A DNA stretch of 32,000 nt from Acinetobacter wanghuae. Its GTDB lineage: Bacteria > Pseudomonadota > Gammaproteobacteria > Pseudomonadales > Moraxellaceae. The notes under the pieces were generated by a model. It saw only the letters and a list, made by a program, of their open reading frames with translations, was not told where the DNA came from and made no database searches. Location of the stretch: NCBI RefSeq assembly GCF_009557235.1, contig NZ_CP045650.1, forward strand, positions 2,220,001 through 2,252,000. The letters are read 5' to 3'. The translations under genes were made by a program, and so were the position numbers. Positions 2,656 through 8,543 of the stretch are shown piece by piece (the first letter of the stretch is position 1; every line of letters starts with the position of its first letter).

Positions 2656-2767
2656 CTTGAATTCTCCTTATTGTTTTCATTCAGCATTTTGATCATCGCC
2701 CAGCAAACCGTGCTTTTTCAGTTGATTTTTAGTATCCTATCTTATTCACTTGTTATTGCGTCGGAAT

Positions 2768-3421
2768 ATGTCTGTCGAAACACCTCAAATTCAAGGCATT
2801 ACACTCTATAGCCACGCCGATGACTTTCGTTCTCATTGGATTCGCTACGTTCTTTCAGAGAAACAAATAAAATATAACCTGATCATCGTAGATGAGGACG
2901 ATGAAGATTTGGCAAGTCTTAACCCGTATAACCAATTGCCAATGCTGATTGAAAATGAACTTAAACTCTTCAATACCAGCATTATTTCTGAATATATAGA
3001 TGATCGTTATCGTCAAAATAAACTCTATGCCGATGCACCTATGCCACGCTCCGAACAACGCCAATATATTTGGCGCTTTGAGAATGACTGGCTCAAATTG
3101 GCAGATGTGATGCTGCGCCATAGCGACACATTAGATGAACAACAAAAACGTCAGGCACAAAAGCAACTTAAAGATATCCTGATCTCACTCACGCCATTAT
3201 TCCAACATTTCCCATATTTTATGTCGGAACATTTTAGTATTTTAGATTGTATGCTTGCCCCTATTTTCATACGCTTAGACAGTATGGGAATCACATTGCC
3301 GCAGCAACAATGTCGTCCATTTCATTTATATTGTCAGCGTATTTTTAGCCGTCCTGCATTCGCCAAATCTATGACTTTGCACGAAAAAAATCGCTTTCAA
3401 ACTTTATTACCGAAACAGTAG
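2768..3421 (+). CDS. sspA: Stringent starvation protein A (GST-like RNAP-associated protein)
   Basis: Collinear similarity to E. coli SspA: LYS...SHxxRxVLxEK, LNPYNQLPML, SxIIxEYIDDRY, PYFMSEHFSILDCMLAP. I prefer the ATG at 2768 (MSVETPQ...) over the TTG at 2750 given in the track. sspB follows. Confidence 0.9.
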   Translation: MSVETPQIQGITLYSHADDFRSHWIRYVLSEKQIKYNLIIVDEDDEDLASLNPYNQLPMLIENELKLFNTSIISEYIDDRYRQNKLYADAPMPRSEQRQYIWRFENDWLKLADVMLRHSDTLDEQQKRQAQKQLKDILISLTPLFQHFPYFMSEHFSILDCMLAPIFIRLDSMGITLPQQQCRPFHLYCQRIFSRPAFAKSMTLHEKNRFQTLLPKQ

Positions 3422-3430
3422 AGAAACCCC

Positions 3431-3859
3431 ATGTCTGAACAAGAATTTAATTTAACGCCGACTCGCCCTTATATGGCTCGCGCTATTTATGAATGGATTT
3501 GTGATAACAGCATGACGCCTTATCTACTGGTCGATGCGACTGTTAAATACACCATGGTGCCTGAGCAATTTATTCAAGACGGTCAGATTGTACTAAACAT
3601 TGTGCCGCATGCCGTACACGCCTTACAGATTAGTAATGAAGCCATTACCTTCTCTGCGCGCTTTGGTGGTGTATCACGTGATATTTATGTGCCTATGCCT
3701 GCTATTATTGGCTTATATGCCAAAGAAAACGGTCAAGGTTTATTCTTTGATGCAAGTGAATATGAAAATACACAAATCGAAGCAGATGATTTAAAATCAA
3801 CCATTGAAGAACAAACTGAACAACCAAAGAAAAAACCAACTTTAAGATTATTAGATTAA
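3431..3859 (+). CDS. sspB: Stringent starvation protein B (ClpXP specificity adaptor)
   Basis: SspB blocks are present: TPTRPYMARAIYEWICDNSMTPYLLVDA, DGQIVLNI.P.AV..L, and ARFGG. An acidic linker follows, and the C-terminal LRLLD resembles the ClpX-binding LRVVK tail. Confidence 0.9.
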   Translation: MSEQEFNLTPTRPYMARAIYEWICDNSMTPYLLVDATVKYTMVPEQFIQDGQIVLNIVPHAVHALQISNEAITFSARFGGVSRDIYVPMPAIIGLYAKENGQGLFFDASEYENTQIEADDLKSTIEEQTEQPKKKPTLRLLD

Positions 3860-3875
3860 AATATGGAGTAAATGC

Positions 3876-4520
3876 ATGGCTTTTGATTTAGTACAATATT
3901 TTGTTGAACAGATAGAGACTCAAAAGCCTGAGCTTCTAAGCACATATTCAAAACAAGAACGCCGTGATCAAATTTCTGAGATTAATGCCTTAACTTTAGG
4001 GAAACTGATTAGTGAGTGGAAAAGTAATTCATCTAAGCTTTATCACGAGATCGTGCATCACGATCCGCTTTATGTAGAAGAATTAGCACGCCATTTAAGT
4101 ACATCTTCTAAAAACCAATCTAGTTTGAATCGAGTAGAGCTTGAAACGACCATTTCAGCCTTCCTTCAATTGCAGTTGCTTGAGTTAAAACAACTACATG
4201 ATACGGGTGGACATAATCAAAATAGTATTCAAGAATTATTGTTAGGGCAGATTGAGCACTTATCTGGTCAGGCAGATGATTGGGTTTGGTCAACAAATAT
4301 GCTAACAGAGCTGATTGGTTCTAAACCCATCATTCAAGACACGCTATCATTAGAGCAATCAATGAAGGAGTTCAACCAAATGGTCAGCCAAAATCAGCAT
4401 ATCGATGAAGATGTTAGCCCAGTCACCACAACACCAACTTGGTCAAAAGTTGTAGAACCTGTGGTTGCACTTGTAATTTTATGGGTTCTTGCTTGCGCAA
4501 TGTGCAATATTTTTGCATGA
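3876..4520 (+). CDS. Hypothetical protein, 214 aa, C-terminal transmembrane anchor
   Basis: The ORF starts 16 nt after sspB and is preceded by GGAG. Its last ~22 residues (VVALVILWVLACAMCNIFA) are hydrophobic, and a strong terminator follows. I recognise no family. Confidence 0.6.
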   Translation: MAFDLVQYFVEQIETQKPELLSTYSKQERRDQISEINALTLGKLISEWKSNSSKLYHEIVHHDPLYVEELARHLSTSSKNQSSLNRVELETTISAFLQLQLLELKQLHDTGGHNQNSIQELLLGQIEHLSGQADDWVWSTNMLTELIGSKPIIQDTLSLEQSMKEFNQMVSQNQHIDEDVSPVTTTPTWSKVVEPVVALVILWVLACAMCNIFA

Positions 4521-4544
4521 AATATTATTGTTTGATTTTAAAAG

Positions 4545-4569
4545 AACCAGCCAAAGTGCTGGTTTTTTT
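4545..4569 (+). terminator. Rho-independent terminator of the sspA-sspB-orf214 unit
   Basis: AACCAGC-CAAAGT-GCTGGTT followed by TTTTT. Confidence 0.8.
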
Positions 4570-4835
4570 ATGACAAAGTTAATCTACAATAATCTTTATT
4601 TTTAAAACTCATTGTATTTTTTTGTTAAAACCATTATTTTTATGTAAAAACAACAGCTTAAATTTAACTAATTACATTTTTTTACATATGAGTTTTTCTA
4701 AAAAATCACTTCAAAATATCAATGCATGTCCACAATATAATCACTAAAAAGCAAAGTTCATCACACATTTAAATCCCCTCAACTTCATAGAAAATAAAAA
4801 TATAGAACGTTTAAAATGGGGTGAAATTAATTTAA

Positions 4836-4863
4836 TTGCAATTTATTGTGCCAATCCTATAAT
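4836..4863 (+). promoter_or_regulatory. Candidate sigma70 promoter of the Roadblock/GTPase cluster
   Basis: TTGCAA (4836-4841), 16-nt spacer, perfect TATAAT (4858-4863). It sits at the end of a ~380-nt AT-rich gap and ~85 nt upstream of the ATG at 4949. Confidence 0.45.
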
Positions 4864-4948
4864 AAATTTGAGTAGCAAAAACGCTGATTACTCCTTAGAA
4901 AAAATAAATATTCCATATCTAGAACTTATAACAGAGAGAGCAATAATT

Positions 4949-5308
4949 ATGGCTAAAGTATCTTTGGATTCACTAACAAGTATTGATGGTTTCTACGCCG
5001 CCGCTCTTGTCGACGGTGAAAGTGGTTTGGCACTAGCAACCCAAGGGGGCGGTGATCTTGATTTAGAGCTTGCAGCTGCAGGTAATACCGAGGTTGTTCG
5101 TGCAAAGCGCCGCGTGGCAAACTCCCTTAACCTGAACGACCATATTGTCGATATTCTGATTACTCTGGGTAAAGCATACCATTTAATTCGTCCGCTCGAA
5201 AAAAATGAAAATGTGTTTTTATACCTAGTATTGGATCGTTCTAAAGCCAATCTTGCAATGGCACGTCATGAATTAAAAGCATTTGAAAAAGGTTTAGATT
5301 TCAATTAA
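4949..5308 (+). CDS. Roadblock/LC7 (MglB-like) domain protein, paralog 1
   Basis: About 119 aa from the ATG at 4949 ([35 protein letters not shown]...YHLIRPL...[20 protein letters not shown]). The size and the alpha-beta-alpha sequence pattern fit the Roadblock/LC7 fold. The purine-rich GAGAGAG lies upstream. The track start at 4868 (TTG) would fall at or inside the predicted promoter. Confidence 0.75.
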
Positions 5309-5403
5309 TTTTTAAACCAATGCCCTTTATATAAATCATGTAGAGGGCATGTTATTTCGCTGTATATTGCAAAAAAATAATAGCAAGTGAATAGAGAGTT
5401 AAT

Positions 5404-6381
5404 ATGACTAAGCAATATATTAATATAGGAATTGCAGGTTTAAGCATCCATGACTCTGATGAATTAAAACATAAGATTAGTAATATATTACCGCAGCATA
5501 TTAATATACAGTGGAAAACAGCTTCGGATATCAATTTAGATTGCTTATTTATTCATGAGCATTTTTTTGAAACCGAAGGTATTCAACGCATACTCAATAC
5601 CAAACATTTCCCATGGCTTAAAATTGCCAAAGATCTTGAACGCTCAGGCAAAGTTTCAAACAACACCTTATATTTACCACTGCAAGACACTTATGAGCTA
5701 AACCGTTGGGTTGATCATCATATCCTGCAATCCAATCAAAAGCCTGTTGAAGACATCGATATTGTTCCAGTCATGAACAGCAAACTCCCAGCCAATCATA
5801 CGTATACCGAAAGTTATTTCAAAGATATGTCTAAGCGTGACTCGAATGCGAAGTTACATCTATCTGATGATAATGGCTCTATCGCAGTAATTAAGCCCTC
5901 CAAAAATCTTGTTTGGCTTAATCCAAATCACCCAATTAAACACACAGATTTCAGTTTTAACTATGATCTAGCATCTACCAATGACTTATTAAAAGTATCG
6001 CGTAAAGAGAGTGTTATCTTACAAGATTGGTTATGGAATTTATTTTGGAATTCGAGTGATTTTTATCAAATTGCACCTGAAGATGGTCATTATAAAATTT
6101 TGTTTTGGCCCAAACCCGATGATTCGATCAATCGAAAAAAAATATTCCAAATGTCTGCATGCTTCATACAGGGTGCAAAAATGTCAAAAATTGCAGAACA
6201 GCATGATATTCCGATGCTTATGATTCGACGATTCATCGCTGCAAATATGGCAGCAGGTAATCTTGAAAAAATCAATGTTTGGGATAAACACTATACCCCG
6301 CCCGAAAAAGCTGAAAAAACTGAACAACAAAACTTTATTAAAAGTTTCTTTGGCAAAATACGCAGCAAATTTGGTTTCTAA
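5404..6381 (+). CDS. Orphan 325-aa protein with a C-terminal helix-turn-helix-like segment (DUF742/CvnC-like by eye)
   Basis: It has an ATG start with GAGAG upstream. No signal peptide or TM segment is evident. Residues ~245-292 (IFQMSACFIQGAKMSKIAEQHDIPMLMIRRFIAANMAAGNLEKI) look like a winged-HTH. The C-terminal tail is basic. It sits immediately upstream of the GTPase. Confidence 0.7.
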   Translation: MTKQYINIGIAGLSIHDSDELKHKISNILPQHINIQWKTASDINLDCLFIHEHFFETEGIQRILNTKHFPWLKIAKDLERSGKVSNNTLYLPLQDTYELNRWVDHHILQSNQKPVEDIDIVPVMNSKLPANHTYTESYFKDMSKRDSNAKLHLSDDNGSIAVIKPSKNLVWLNPNHPIKHTDFSFNYDLASTNDLLKVSRKESVILQDWLWNLFWNSSDFYQIAPEDGHYKILFWPKPDDSINRKKIFQMSACFIQGAKMSKIAEQHDIPMLMIRRFIAANMAAGNLEKINVWDKHYTPPEKAEKTEQQNFIKSFFGKIRSKFGF

Positions 6382-6397
6382 TTAAAGGTAGATACAA

Positions 6398-6940
6398 ATG
6401 ATTTTACAAGAATATAAGATTGTATTTGCAGGTACGATGGGTGCAGGAAAAACAGAAGCGATTCGCTCTTTATCAGAAATTCCTGTGCTCTCTACAGAAG
6501 CCCTGAATACAGATCAAAATAGCCATACTAAGATGGAAACCACGGTTGGTATCGACTACGGGGAAGTGACCTTAGATGATGGTGTTAAAATTGGCTTATA
6601 CGGCACACCAGGGCAAAGTCGTTTTGATTTTATTTGGCCGGTCATTTGTAAAGGTGCGATTGGCGCAATTGTCTTAATTGATCATCATATTGACAATCCC
6701 ATTCAGGAGCTAGAAAACTATTTAGAGGTTTTCCAAAACTATACCGATAACATTGCAATTGGCATTACACATACGGATTTAAGCAGTGAACGTTCTACAA
6801 ATATCTATAAAGAATGGCTGATTAGCCAAGATCTTTACTCTCCCCTATTTTTTATCGATGCCCGTAAAAAAGAAGATGTTTTATTACTTTTAGAAGCGCT
6901 CATTACCTCGGTAGAAGTAAACCACGATATTACAACTTAA
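6398..6940 (+). CDS. Small Ras-like GTPase of the MglA/CvnD (ATP/GTP-binding protein) type
   Basis: 180 aa. The P-loop is GTMGAGKT (6431-6454) and the switch-I Thr lies in METTVGIDYG. G3 is GTPGQ (6602-6616) and G4 is THTD (6767-6778). The LYGTPGQSRFDFIW...GAIGAIVLID block resembles conservon CvnD proteins as I remember them. Confidence 0.85.
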   Translation: MILQEYKIVFAGTMGAGKTEAIRSLSEIPVLSTEALNTDQNSHTKMETTVGIDYGEVTLDDGVKIGLYGTPGQSRFDFIWPVICKGAIGAIVLIDHHIDNPIQELENYLEVFQNYTDNIAIGITHTDLSSERSTNIYKEWLISQDLYSPLFFIDARKKEDVLLLLEALITSVEVNHDITT

Positions 6941-6949
6941 GGATGTTTG

Positions 6950-7366
6950 ATGATGTTTAACTTTCAAGAAAAACGTAAAGCACCAGAGGAATTAGTACAA
7001 TGTGCAAAACGTGAGATCCATGATGTAATATCCAATGTTCGCGGCATTTATTATGTGATGGTCTGCTCTACCGATGGATTTGAACTCGCAACTATTCACA
7101 AAAAAGATAACTATAACAACAGTAAGCTTGCTGCTGTAAGTAGCTCAATATTAGCGATGGTGTCTGCCTTTACCAGTGAAATTCACCTTACTGGATGCCA
7201 ATCTATTACCTTAGATGCTGAAAATGGGAAAGCTATTTTAACTGCTGTTCCCGCACCCAAGCATCCGATGATTATTGTCGCCTTAACGGAAAAAGACATT
7301 CTACTTGGACAAGCACTTTATGCGCTTAAGAGTGCAACACAAACCATTGCTGCTGCGGATAAATAA
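6950..7366 (+). CDS. Roadblock/LC7 (MglB/CvnB-like) domain protein, paralog 2
   Basis: About 138 aa. AAGGA lies 6 nt upstream of the ATG at 6950. The sequence VRGIYYVMVCSTDGFELATIHKK...KLAAVSSSILAMVSAF...ITLDAENGKAILTAV...MIIVALTEKD..LGQALYAL follows the canonical Roadblock pattern. The gap after the GTPase stop is 9 nt. Confidence 0.8.
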   Translation: MMFNFQEKRKAPEELVQCAKREIHDVISNVRGIYYVMVCSTDGFELATIHKKDNYNNSKLAAVSSSILAMVSAFTSEIHLTGCQSITLDAENGKAILTAVPAPKHPMIIVALTEKDILLGQALYALKSATQTIAAADK

Positions 7367-7367
7367 G

Positions 7368-7375
7368 TTAAATAA
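7368..7375. repeat. Target-site duplication, left copy (TTAAATAA)
   Basis: This 8-mer directly abuts the left IS end and is identical to 8348-8355. Confidence 0.8.
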
Positions 7376-8347
7376 CCCGAATCGCGGATAAGAAATTAAC
7401 TTGAAAAATAGAAGGACTAGAGCCATCAGTTGAGTTACCACACAAAACTTAAAACTCTAGTCCCGATGTTTAATAGTACCGAATTATTTTGCTTAATTGA
7501 TGATTTCTTTCTTAAATTTGAAGCAACCTACTGGAATTTTCTTAAGCAAAGTAATCGTTCCTTAAGAATCAGAACTGCTCATTTAACCATTTCAGAAATC
7601 TGTTTTATCGCTATTTGGTACAAATGTTCTCATTTCAATAATTTCAAAGCATTTTTCATTTGGTTAAAAGAAGATAAAAACCATTTATTTAAGTATTTGC
7701 CTTGCTATCAAAGGATGATTCATCTGATCAATATGCACCAATTGGCTCTACACGCTTTACATGTGGTGCTGATGAAAGACCAAGGTACACAATATTTATG
7801 GATTGATTCAACAACTCTGCCAGTTTGTAAAAATCAACGTATTCAACGCCATAAATCTTTAGCTAAAATTGCATCTCGTGGTAAAAGTTCAATGGGCTGG
7901 TTTTATGGCTGTAAATTGCACATTGCAATGAACCAATTTGGTGAAATTGCTTGTTCTGCTTTATCGAATGGACATGTTGCTGACATAAAAATGGTTGAGA
8001 GACTCGTTAAAGAGGTGGAAGCAAAGTTGTATGGAGATCGTGGCTATATTAGTCAAGAACTGAAGATTAGATTAAAAGAGCAAGGCATTGATTTAATTAC
8101 CTATCATCGAAAAAATATGCAGGCTACACAACTTTCTGAGTCAGATAAATATCACTTAAAACAGCGTAATAAGATAGAGACTTTATTCAGTTTATTGAAA
8201 GGTCAGTACAATTTAGTGACAAGCAAAGCACGCAGTGTTCATGGATTTCTAGGAGGGATTTACGCGTCCTTGTGTGCATATCAATTGATCCATAAAAATA
8301 AGCCAACAATTCAAATTATGGAGTCATCGGCTTAAACAGGATTCGGG
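7376..8347 (+). mobile_element. IS982-family insertion sequence (ISAba-like), 972 bp, apparently intact
   Basis: The terminal inverted repeats are CCCGAATCGCGGATAAG (7376-7392) and the reverse complement of 8331-8347, CCCGAATCCTGTTTAAG (13/17 identical, first 8 perfect). It has a single DDE transposase ORF whose stop codon lies inside the right IR. It is flanked by the 8-bp direct repeat TTAAATAA. Confidence 0.85.
7466..8335 (+). CDS. IS982-family DDE transposase
   Basis: MFNSTELFCLIDDFF... is the N-terminus typical of IS982-family transposases. DDE candidates are present: WIDSTTLPV, YGDRGYIS and NKIETLFSLLK. The track offers an upstream TTG at 7430 as an alternative start. Confidence 0.85.
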   Translation: MFNSTELFCLIDDFFLKFEATYWNFLKQSNRSLRIRTAHLTISEICFIAIWYKCSHFNNFKAFFIWLKEDKNHLFKYLPCYQRMIHLINMHQLALHALHVVLMKDQGTQYLWIDSTTLPVCKNQRIQRHKSLAKIASRGKSSMGWFYGCKLHIAMNQFGEIACSALSNGHVADIKMVERLVKEVEAKLYGDRGYISQELKIRLKEQGIDLITYHRKNMQATQLSESDKYHLKQRNKIETLFSLLKGQYNLVTSKARSVHGFLGGIYASLCAYQLIHKNKPTIQIMESSA

Positions 8348-8383: not shown

Positions 8384-8418
8384 AAAAACCCCCTCAATCT
8401 TTTGATTGAGGGGGTTTT
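8384..8418. terminator. Bidirectional rho-independent terminator (end of the rrn operon; the pre-insertion terminator of the GTPase cluster)
   Basis: AAAAA-CCCCCTCAATC-TTTT-GATTGAGGGGG-TTTT. The 11-bp perfect GC-rich stem lies ~10 nt downstream of the 5S 3' end on the minus strand. Confidence 0.9.
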
Positions 8419-8425
8419 GAATTAA

Positions 8426-8543
8426 TGAGCTGGCGATGACTTACTCTCACATGGGTAATCCCACACTACCATCAGCGCTAAGAGGTTTCACTTCTGAGTT
8501 CGGGAAGGGATCAGGTGGTTCACTCTTGCTATTGTCGCCAGCA
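8426..8543 (-). rRNA. rrf: 5S ribosomal RNA
   Basis: The reverse complement reads TGCTGGCGACAATAGC...CCGAACTCAGAAGTGAAAC...GATGGTAGTGTGGG...GAGAGTAAGTCATCGCCAGC, collinear with E. coli 5S. Helix I pairing between the terminal sequences is intact. Confidence 0.95.

Follow-up and report, generated by a model that had tools for sequence, protein, structure and literature searches.

A putative kinase-less MglA Group 3 switch with two Roadblock proteins in the core genome of Acinetobacter

We analyzed a 32,000-nucleotide (nt) stretch of Acinetobacter wanghuae DNA, referred to here as the window, whose numbering is used for the coordinates below. Four genes of one orientation were found at 4949–7366 in the six-frame list of open reading frames (ORFs), exactly as placed in a preliminary description of this DNA. 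They encode, in order, a Roadblock/LC7-fold protein (Robl1), a 325-amino-acid (aa) protein (the DUF protein), a small Ras-like guanosine triphosphatase (GTPase), and a second Roadblock protein (Robl2). The explanation that we favor, with reasonable though not high confidence, is that an MglA Group 3 switch is encoded here in its Acinetobacter version, i.e., a four-protein cytoplasmic G-protein module without a histidine kinase, in which the Robl1/Robl2 pair would regulate the GTPase and the DUF protein would act as an exchange factor and/or effector. To our knowledge, Myxococcus polarity is the only setting in which bacterial switches built on small Ras-like GTPases are well understood, the actinobacterial conservons being understood in part.

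MglA Group 3 systems were defined computationally and are almost exclusively beta- and gammaproteobacterial (Wuichet & Sogaard-Andersen 2014, Genome Biol Evol 7:57; PMC4316618). The Group 3 genera in the table of this catalog include Neisseria, Dichelobacter, Xanthomonas, Ralstonia, Stenotrophomonas, and Acinetobacter. Two Acinetobacter strains, A. calcoaceticus PHEA-2 (BDGL_002466) and A. oleivorans DR1 (AOLE_02455), appear in Table S2 with the arrangement “DUF>MglA>MglB” and a 186-aa GTPase. The A. calcoaceticus 186-aa GTPase was 67% identical to the window GTPase and was encoded in an identical gene order; because of this identity and the shared synteny, the window locus is, as judged from the sequences, orthologous to one of the Group 3 systems in that list. 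The probable placement in Group 3 rests on orthology to the A. calcoaceticus GTPase, whose genus is entered there as Group 3, and on the gammaproteobacterial host. The window proteins also carry the features given for Group 3 in the catalog, namely a GTPase with a GTPGQ G3 motif, a Thr in place of the arginine finger, a G4 motif without Lys (IGITHTD), and a DAR G5 motif (IDARK); a partner with a variable linker, a C-terminal winged helix-turn-helix (wHTH), and a receiver-like N-terminus, the last weakly supported (Foldseek expect value (E) ~0.06); and coupled Roadblock genes, one or two in number, whose products carry an Asp-Gly pair, found as DG in both Robl1 and Robl2. The absence of a kinase gene from the cluster, pointed out earlier, was borne out, as no kinase ORF or Pfam match was found at 2750–8335 of the window, nor in the A. 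calcoaceticus and Psychrobacter loci or that of a Pseudomonadales metagenome-assembled genome (MAG). The preliminary description had further noted no functional description of such a module in Moraxellaceae. This stood, as no functional study was found; the type of module, however, was catalogued in 2014, with two Acinetobacter species in the table.

The GTPase matched Pfam ATP_bind_1 (E 9e-10) and Ras (E 2e-5), and its motifs were read as GTMGAGKT (G1), TTVGIDYGE (G2), LYGTPGQ (G3), THTD (G4, without Lys), and DAR (G5), in agreement with its earlier assignment to the MglA/CvnD branch of Ras-like GTPases. In 65 GTPase orthologs, GxMGAGKT, TTVGIDYGE, LYGTPGQ, IGITHxD, and IDARK were kept, LYGTPGQ and ETTVGIDYGE being at least 95% conserved, and a Thr occupied the place of the intrinsic Arg finger beside the G2 Thr. 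The motifs could be aligned with those of five actinobacterial CvnD proteins from plasmid-borne conservons. In PMC4316618, TT replacing the intrinsic Arg finger, GTPGQ, G4 without Lys, and a DAR G5 are described for MglA Groups 2–5 generally and for Groups 2/3 specifically. The sequence data supported the assignment of the protein as a Ras-like GTPase of the CvnD or MglA Groups 2–5 type. A sequence search of the Protein Data Bank (PDB) returned eukaryotic Rabs as the nearest solved sequences, and MglA was not among the best 60 matches. The GTPase was identical to A. wanghuae WP_153372445.1 and the neighboring SspB to WP_153372437.1; the public A. wanghuae annotation names Robl1 a “roadblock/LC7 domain-containing protein”, the 325-aa protein a “hypothetical protein” (GFH30_10525), and the GTPase a “GTP-binding protein”.

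These properties bear on a doubtful alternative, in which the module would be a regulator of polarity or type IV pili, setting a pole or controlling twitching, surface motility, or competence pili in the manner of MglA/MglB of Myxococcus and Bdellovibrio. Such a role would be compatible with the Group 3 switch, as its output, and we counted for it the similarity of Robl1 to MglB at the fold level and the fact that many of the Group 3 genera listed (Neisseria, Dichelobacter, Xanthomonas, Ralstonia, Stenotrophomonas, and Acinetobacter) are type IV pilus twitchers. The GTPase, however, lacks the Group 1 hallmarks (there is no intrinsic Arg finger, and the motif is GTPGQ, not TVPGQ); its best 60 PDB matches tell against this role as well, and no pil, romR, or frz genes were found near the GTPase in any locus examined.

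Both assignments of Roadblock proteins made in the preliminary description were upheld, each on different grounds. Robl2 matched Pfam Robl_LC7 (PF03259; gathering threshold, 23 bits) above the cut-off (E 1.1e-6, 28.7 bits) and aligned in hhalign with a profile of five conservon CvnB proteins at 97.3% (E 1.7e-11), so that Robl2 is homologous to CvnB; a DG pair (STDGF) is present in it. The Robl_LC7 match of Robl1 was only E 0.029 and 14.5 bits, under the cut-off. The two Roadblock paralogs had been called different, and no pairwise similarity was detectable between them; hhalign gave 0.5% for Robl1 against Robl2 and 4.9% against CvnB. No NCBIfam match was found for Robl1, the DUF protein, or Robl2. 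Since sequence alone did not prove the fold of Robl1 in hhalign, structure prediction was needed. The AlphaFold2 (AF2) model of Robl1 (predicted local distance difference test (pLDDT) 75; predicted template modeling score (pTM) 0.70) has the alpha-beta-beta-alpha-beta-beta-beta-alpha order of the Roadblock topology, and its best Foldseek match was M. xanthus MglB 6hjm (E 1.4e-6; template modeling score (TM) 0.76). The top PDB matches of the model were MglB, LAMTOR2, p14, and archaeal Roadblocks, at E ~1e-6 and TM 0.73–0.81. The Asp-Gly pair D13-G14 was invariant, and NCBI and JGI call the protein roadblock/LC7 in several species. Taken as a model-based assignment, Robl1 is supported as a Roadblock protein by fold, and the module thus has two Roadblock-fold proteins that are not interchangeable. 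In the catalog, Acinetobacter was recorded with one GTPase and one Roadblock protein (1:1), whereas the window order is MglB′>DUF>MglA>MglB; because a second, Pfam-negative Roadblock gene lies upstream, the Acinetobacter Group 3 system is really 1:2 with a rearranged order.

The order sspA-sspB-TM214-Robl1-DUF-GTPase-Robl2, where TM214 is a 214-aa gene, was kept in about 68 of the 71 Acinetobacter species loci taken from GTDB representatives, a result that answers the survey of synteny across the genus proposed earlier. The Robl1 gene lay upstream of the DUF gene in all these loci, and genus-wide identities to the window proteins were 78–93% for Robl1, 65–85% for the GTPase, 57–73% for Robl2, and 31–64% for the DUF protein. 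The GC content at third codon positions (GC3) was 0.31–0.32 in the four genes and 0.29–0.40 in the other window genes, and the compositional distinctness that had been suggested for the cluster was not seen. Because of the synteny and a GC3 equal to that of the flanks, the locus belongs to the Acinetobacter core genome and is not an island. A recently acquired island, mobile cargo, or a defense system was considered as a further and very improbable explanation, hinted at by the earlier remark on composition, with a diverged copy on a segment of an A. wuhouensis conjugative plasmid flanked by insertion sequences (IS) and an IS982 element adjoining the cluster in the window speaking for it. The same chromosomal place beside sspAB in nearly all the species loci, the GC3 values, and the absence of the IS982 element (7430–8335) from all 76 related loci stand against it, and synteny largely refutes it. 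A PADLOC scan of five proteins gave no match, and the defense reading was therefore rejected.

On the A. wuhouensis plasmid p1_010062 (NZ_CP033119.1), a diverged version of the whole set is arranged as GTPase>Robl2>DUF>Robl1; it spans the record origin and is flanked by IS5, IS3, and IS1595 transposases. Identities to the window proteins were 76% for Robl1, 60% for the GTPase, 51% for Robl2, and 25% for the DUF protein. All four genes are inherited together, both as a core unit and on a plasmid. A partial second chromosomal copy was observed in A. modestus. In A. ursingii DSM 16037 (~6314–7864), the GTPase match stops at residue ~114 and Robl2 follows ~1.5 kb further on, which suggests that an insertion interrupts the GTPase gene in this strain, a possible natural knockout.

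The DUF protein had been regarded as an orphan. A profile search yielded 307 clusters at 50% identity, reaching Psychrobacter, and the protein therefore has a family of its own rather than orphan status; it corresponds to the “DUF” component of MglA Group 3 systems. The window protein itself was without a Pfam or NCBIfam match, and among 34 family members Pfam HTH_40 was matched in 20, HTH_23 in 11, and Sigma70_r4 in 6. The AF2 model (pLDDT 84) was divided into the segments given in Table 1; neither the alpha/beta domain in its center nor the helix kept at its C-terminus is mentioned in the consulted sections of the Group 3 catalog. A Foldseek search with the full-length model returned no PDB match at E ≤ 0.001 and only weak flavodoxin and receiver matches, the receiver matches being VpsT (probability 0.97) and RssB (probability 0.90) at E ~0.06. 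In the alignment, read by eye, the N-domain was without conserved acidic residues at the positions of the receiver phospho-acceptor pocket, and for this reason it is at best a pseudo-receiver.

The main rival explanation, which we regard as possible but clearly less probable than the Group 3 switch outlined above, takes the DUF protein to be a DNA-binding regulator like an atypical response regulator, so that the module would be a GTPase-gated transcription factor whose occupancy of promoters is controlled by the switch, with gene expression as its output. The wHTH of the AF2 model, the HTH_40, HTH_23, and Sigma70_r4 matches, the net positive charge read from the sequence of the HTH segment, and the receiver-like N-domain are in line with this explanation, and a DNA-binding output role for the DUF protein was suggested in PMC4316618. 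The recognition helix, however, is mostly hydrophobic (consensus TVQQFIAANIAS), like that of DUF742, whose one characterized member acts as an exchange factor. A conserved basic amphipathic tail after a disordered spacer is untypical of soluble DNA-binding regulators, and no conserved palindrome was found in the 160 nt 5′ of Robl1 besides the promoter hexamers.

Although the DUF protein otherwise evolves fast, its tail (window 6300–6381) is conserved better than any other short motif in it. The tail reads FFGKIRSKFGF in the window; in distant members, out to Psychrobacter, it reads LGFLxRLRRKLGL. A variable spacer precedes it, and the partners in Ralstonia, Comamonas, and Deinococcus have similar tails with an “LLGxLRR”-like helix. 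A conserved terminal helix, LLxxVLxGLxxL, is likewise present in DUF742 proteins, and its resemblance to the DUF tail was judged by eye only. The architecture is parallel to that of DUF742 proteins, with an HTH, a spacer, and a terminal helix, encoded beside a GTPGQ/DAR GTPase and a Roadblock protein. At the sequence level, DUF742 was matched by Pfam in 1 of the 34 DUF members (E 0.063). The full DUF family profile gave 0.7% in hhalign against five DUF742 proteins; with the HTH segment alone, taken from an alignment of 115 family sequences, the value was 36.5% (E 3.7e-4) over 44 columns. The DUF742-like piece that had been proposed to be fused to the C-terminus was not demonstrated by these comparisons, and what is shown at the C-terminus is only an HTH.

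The promoter TTGCAA-16-TATAAT proposed upstream of the cluster was backed by its conservation across the genus and not by its frequency as a pattern. As a bare pattern it occurred at 9 sites against 12.7 expected, i.e., not above chance in this AT-rich DNA. In an alignment of the 160 nt 5′ of Robl1 from 69 distinct Acinetobacter sequences, the TTG of the −35 element and all six −10 bases were at least 90% conserved, and the rest of the spacer was not. Because of this conservation, the element was accepted as the probable promoter of the cluster. The gap 5′ of Robl1 (4521–4948) proved to be AT-rich as described (23.8% GC), with a length of 428 nt instead of ~380 nt; Rfam returned only rRNA and tRNA in the whole window and no match in this 428-nt leader. 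The spacers between Robl1 and DUF, DUF and GTPase, and GTPase and Robl2 are 95, 16, and 9 nt, and the ribosome-binding sites AAGG and AGGA precede the GTPase and Robl2 genes, respectively. A single operon of the four genes is plausible. A stem-loop follows the Robl1 stop codon (Table 1). Species with a short Robl1-DUF spacer (~83–95 nt) have stems of 11–17 bp at this position (median z −2.9), although the sequences are unrelated, followed in some of them by U-runs, and the haemolyticus/junii clade has a spacer of 150–165 nt without the stem-loop. In view of this element, the expression level of Robl1 may differ from that of the three downstream genes, and the stem-loop may act as an attenuator that sets the stoichiometry of Robl1.

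In mycobacteria, the Roadblock protein MfpD is the GTPase-activating protein (GAP) of MfpB, and the DUF742 protein MfpC, which has an HTH, is its guanine nucleotide exchange factor (GEF) (PMC11343762; PMC9769811); MglB has shown both GAP and GEF behavior (PMC13408092). On the basis of these Roadblock GAPs, the DUF742 GEF, and the dual activity of MglB, we propose that Robl1 and Robl2 form a putative heterodimer. It would bind a single GTPase over the switch regions and control the nucleotide state of the GTPase as a GAP, possibly also by exchange, as MglB and MfpD do. The extreme conservation of Robl1 would be explained if it is the subunit in contact with the switches, as we propose. Like the DUF742 protein MfpC, the DUF protein would bind the GTPase, using the module of wHTH and terminal helix, and would serve as an exchange factor and/or a GTP-dependent effector. 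The basic amphipathic tail may tether the complex to the membrane or dock on a partner, and the pseudo-receiver may provide an input surface that replaces the missing kinase.

Several points weigh against this explanation. The homology between the DUF C-terminus and DUF742 appears statistically weak from the sequence comparisons, and the hydrophobic moment of the tail is unremarkable (0.24–0.43) and does not discriminate, so that the idea of a membrane anchor stays a guess. Psychrobacter and the Pseudomonadales MAG have DUF>GTPase>Robl2, with DUF proteins of 433–469 aa and no Robl1 nearby; for this reason Robl1 is not universally required. Streptomyces and Deinococcus carry Robl1-type genes without a nearby GTPase, and the stem-loop after Robl1 may uncouple its expression from that of the other three genes. 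Literature searches found no experimental study of any MglA Group 3 system.

Robl1 was among the most conserved proteins of the Acinetobacter locus, and its conservation extended beyond the genus. In a Ralstonia locus arranged as DUF>GTPase>Robl>Robl, the second Roadblock protein (119 aa) was 54% identical to Robl1, and in a Comamonas locus of this arrangement the fourth gene was 57% identical to it over the tblastn alignment. Robl2 shared only 22% identity with its Ralstonia counterpart, and the DUF proteins were barely alignable. Robl1-type proteins were 52–59% identical among Acinetobacter, Ralstonia, Comamonas, Streptomyces, Nonomuraea, Nocardia, and Deinococcus replicons and 38–41% identical in Hymenobacter; a word-index search gave 5765 clusters at 90% identity, for which no Pfam or NCBIfam model was found at threshold. 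It is conceivable, though we consider it rather unlikely, that Robl1-type proteins form an unrecognized, ultra-conserved Roadblock subfamily and that, wherever Roadblock regulators are heterodimers, a member of it is the subunit contacting the switch. Combined with a Roadblock protein specific to the lineage and a tail-anchored wHTH protein, they would then constitute a bacterial counterpart of Ragulator-Rag, in which the C-terminal “LLGxLRR” helix of the partner, common to DUF742, would drive nucleotide exchange or membrane tethering.

Other arrangements were also observed. On a Streptomyces plasmid, a Robl1-type gene stands beside genes for a 271-aa wHTH protein, a Roadblock protein, and a second Robl1-like protein, with no GTPase within 8 kb. 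A variant on the Ralstonia solanacearum megaplasmid has a GTPase (38% identical), after which come more Roadblock genes and a gene for a 436-aa protein that joins a P-loop ATPase to a dual-specificity/tyrosine phosphatase domain; this suggests a different output for a related switch.

Table 1. Features of the locus and of its flanks in the window (residue numbers are given for segments of the DUF protein)
Feature	Position	Strand	Remarks
TM214 (214-aa gene)	3876–4520	+	Between sspB and the gap; hydrophobic C-terminus
Terminator-like hairpin with T-run	4545–4569		Closes the sspA-sspB-TM214 unit; the gap begins after it
Sigma-70-type promoter, TTGCAA-16-TATAAT	4836–4863	+	Pattern scan score 10/12 plus conservation
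Robl1	4949–5308	+	119 aa; Roadblock/LC7-fold, highly conserved “second MglB” type
Stem-loop	5320–5350	+	13 bp, just 3′ of the Robl1 stop (terminator-like scan); possible attenuator or partial terminator
Group 3 “DUF” protein	5404–6381	+	325 aa
DUF N-domain, flavodoxin/receiver-like	residues 1–111		AF2 model
DUF linker, variable, low-confidence	residues 112–135		AF2 model, alignment
DUF Trp-rich alpha/beta domain	residues 136–240		AF2 model
DUF winged HTH	residues 244–290		AF2 model; disordered spacer after it
DUF conserved basic C-terminal helix, FIKSFFGKIRSKFGF	residues 309–323		AF2 model, family alignment
Small Ras-like GTPase, MglA Group 3 (CvnD-like)	6398–6940	+	180 aa
Robl2	6950–7366	+	138 aa; MglB/CvnB-type Roadblock protein
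IS982-family transposase	7430–8335	+	NCBIfam E 4e-75; between Robl2 and the rrn operon
rrn terminator hairpin	8385–8418		Between IS982 and 5S
rrn operon	5S at 8428–8542, then 23S, 16S		Convergent; Rfam

TM214 and its terminator, the IS982 transposase, and the stem-loop after Robl1 had no place in the preliminary description. Among the flanking genes (Table 1), TM214 was without a Pfam or NCBIfam match. It was kept after sspB in nearly all Acinetobacter loci at 53–70% identity, and is apparently part of the sspAB unit, not of the GTPase module. In many relatives the contig stops ~1 kb past Robl2, which is consistent with a directly adjoining rrn operon.

Group 3 systems occur in Neisseria, Xanthomonas, Stenotrophomonas, Ralstonia, and Acinetobacter, and functional data on them were absent from our literature searches. 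The module is a promoter-defined core unit across Acinetobacter, including the tractable A. nosocomialis and A. pittii of the calcoaceticus-baumannii complex, and it offers a practical system for finding the output of such a switch, in which the very conserved Robl1 points to the subunit to mutate first. The record is corrected in three respects: island status does not apply to the locus, the large protein has known relatives and is no orphan, and the kind of arrangement had been described before. What is added here is the second Roadblock protein of the Acinetobacter Group 3 system, its genus-wide core status, and the unusually conserved Robl1-type subfamily.

Among known systems, MglA/MglB of Myxococcus xanthus and Thermus thermophilus (Group 1) shares with the window locus a Ras-like GTPase with Roadblock-fold regulators, and the Robl1 model superposes on MglB 6hjm, 6izw, and 3t12 at TM 0.74–0.80. 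The window GTPase differs from Group 1 MglA in lacking the intrinsic arginine finger and in its GTPGQ instead of TVPGQ motif. The partners RomR, RomX, and Frz are not nearby in the window, and two unlike Roadblock proteins take the place of the MglB homodimer. The comparison with Ragulator/LAMTOR-Rag is by analogy only. There, Roadblock-fold heterodimers scaffold and regulate small GTPases at a membrane, and LAMTOR2/p14 was among the best structural matches of Robl1. Rag GTPases, in contrast, carry their own Roadblock domains, and for the window proteins both heterodimerization and membrane binding are putative.

The conservons (CvnA-D of Streptomyces and MfpE-B of Mycobacterium) represent MglA Group 2 and resemble the window locus in their Roadblock protein, given the hhalign match of Robl2 to CvnB, in a GTPase with GTPGQ and DAR that was 28–34% identical to the window GTPase in the alignment, and in an HTH protein encoded beside the GTPase. 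They differ in that the membrane sensor histidine kinase CvnA/MfpE heads the operon in all five fetched actinobacterial loci, whereas the window locus is without one. CvnD has an NxFD G4 motif and a switch-I insertion, and the window GTPase has THTD and no insertion. DUF742 proteins comprise ~110 aa, in contrast to the 325-aa multidomain partner in the window, and a single Roadblock protein is found in conservons as opposed to two paralogs here, in a gammaproteobacterial host. The roles published for the conservon proteins, with the Roadblock protein as a GAP and the HTH protein as a GEF, supply the working model for the Acinetobacter module.

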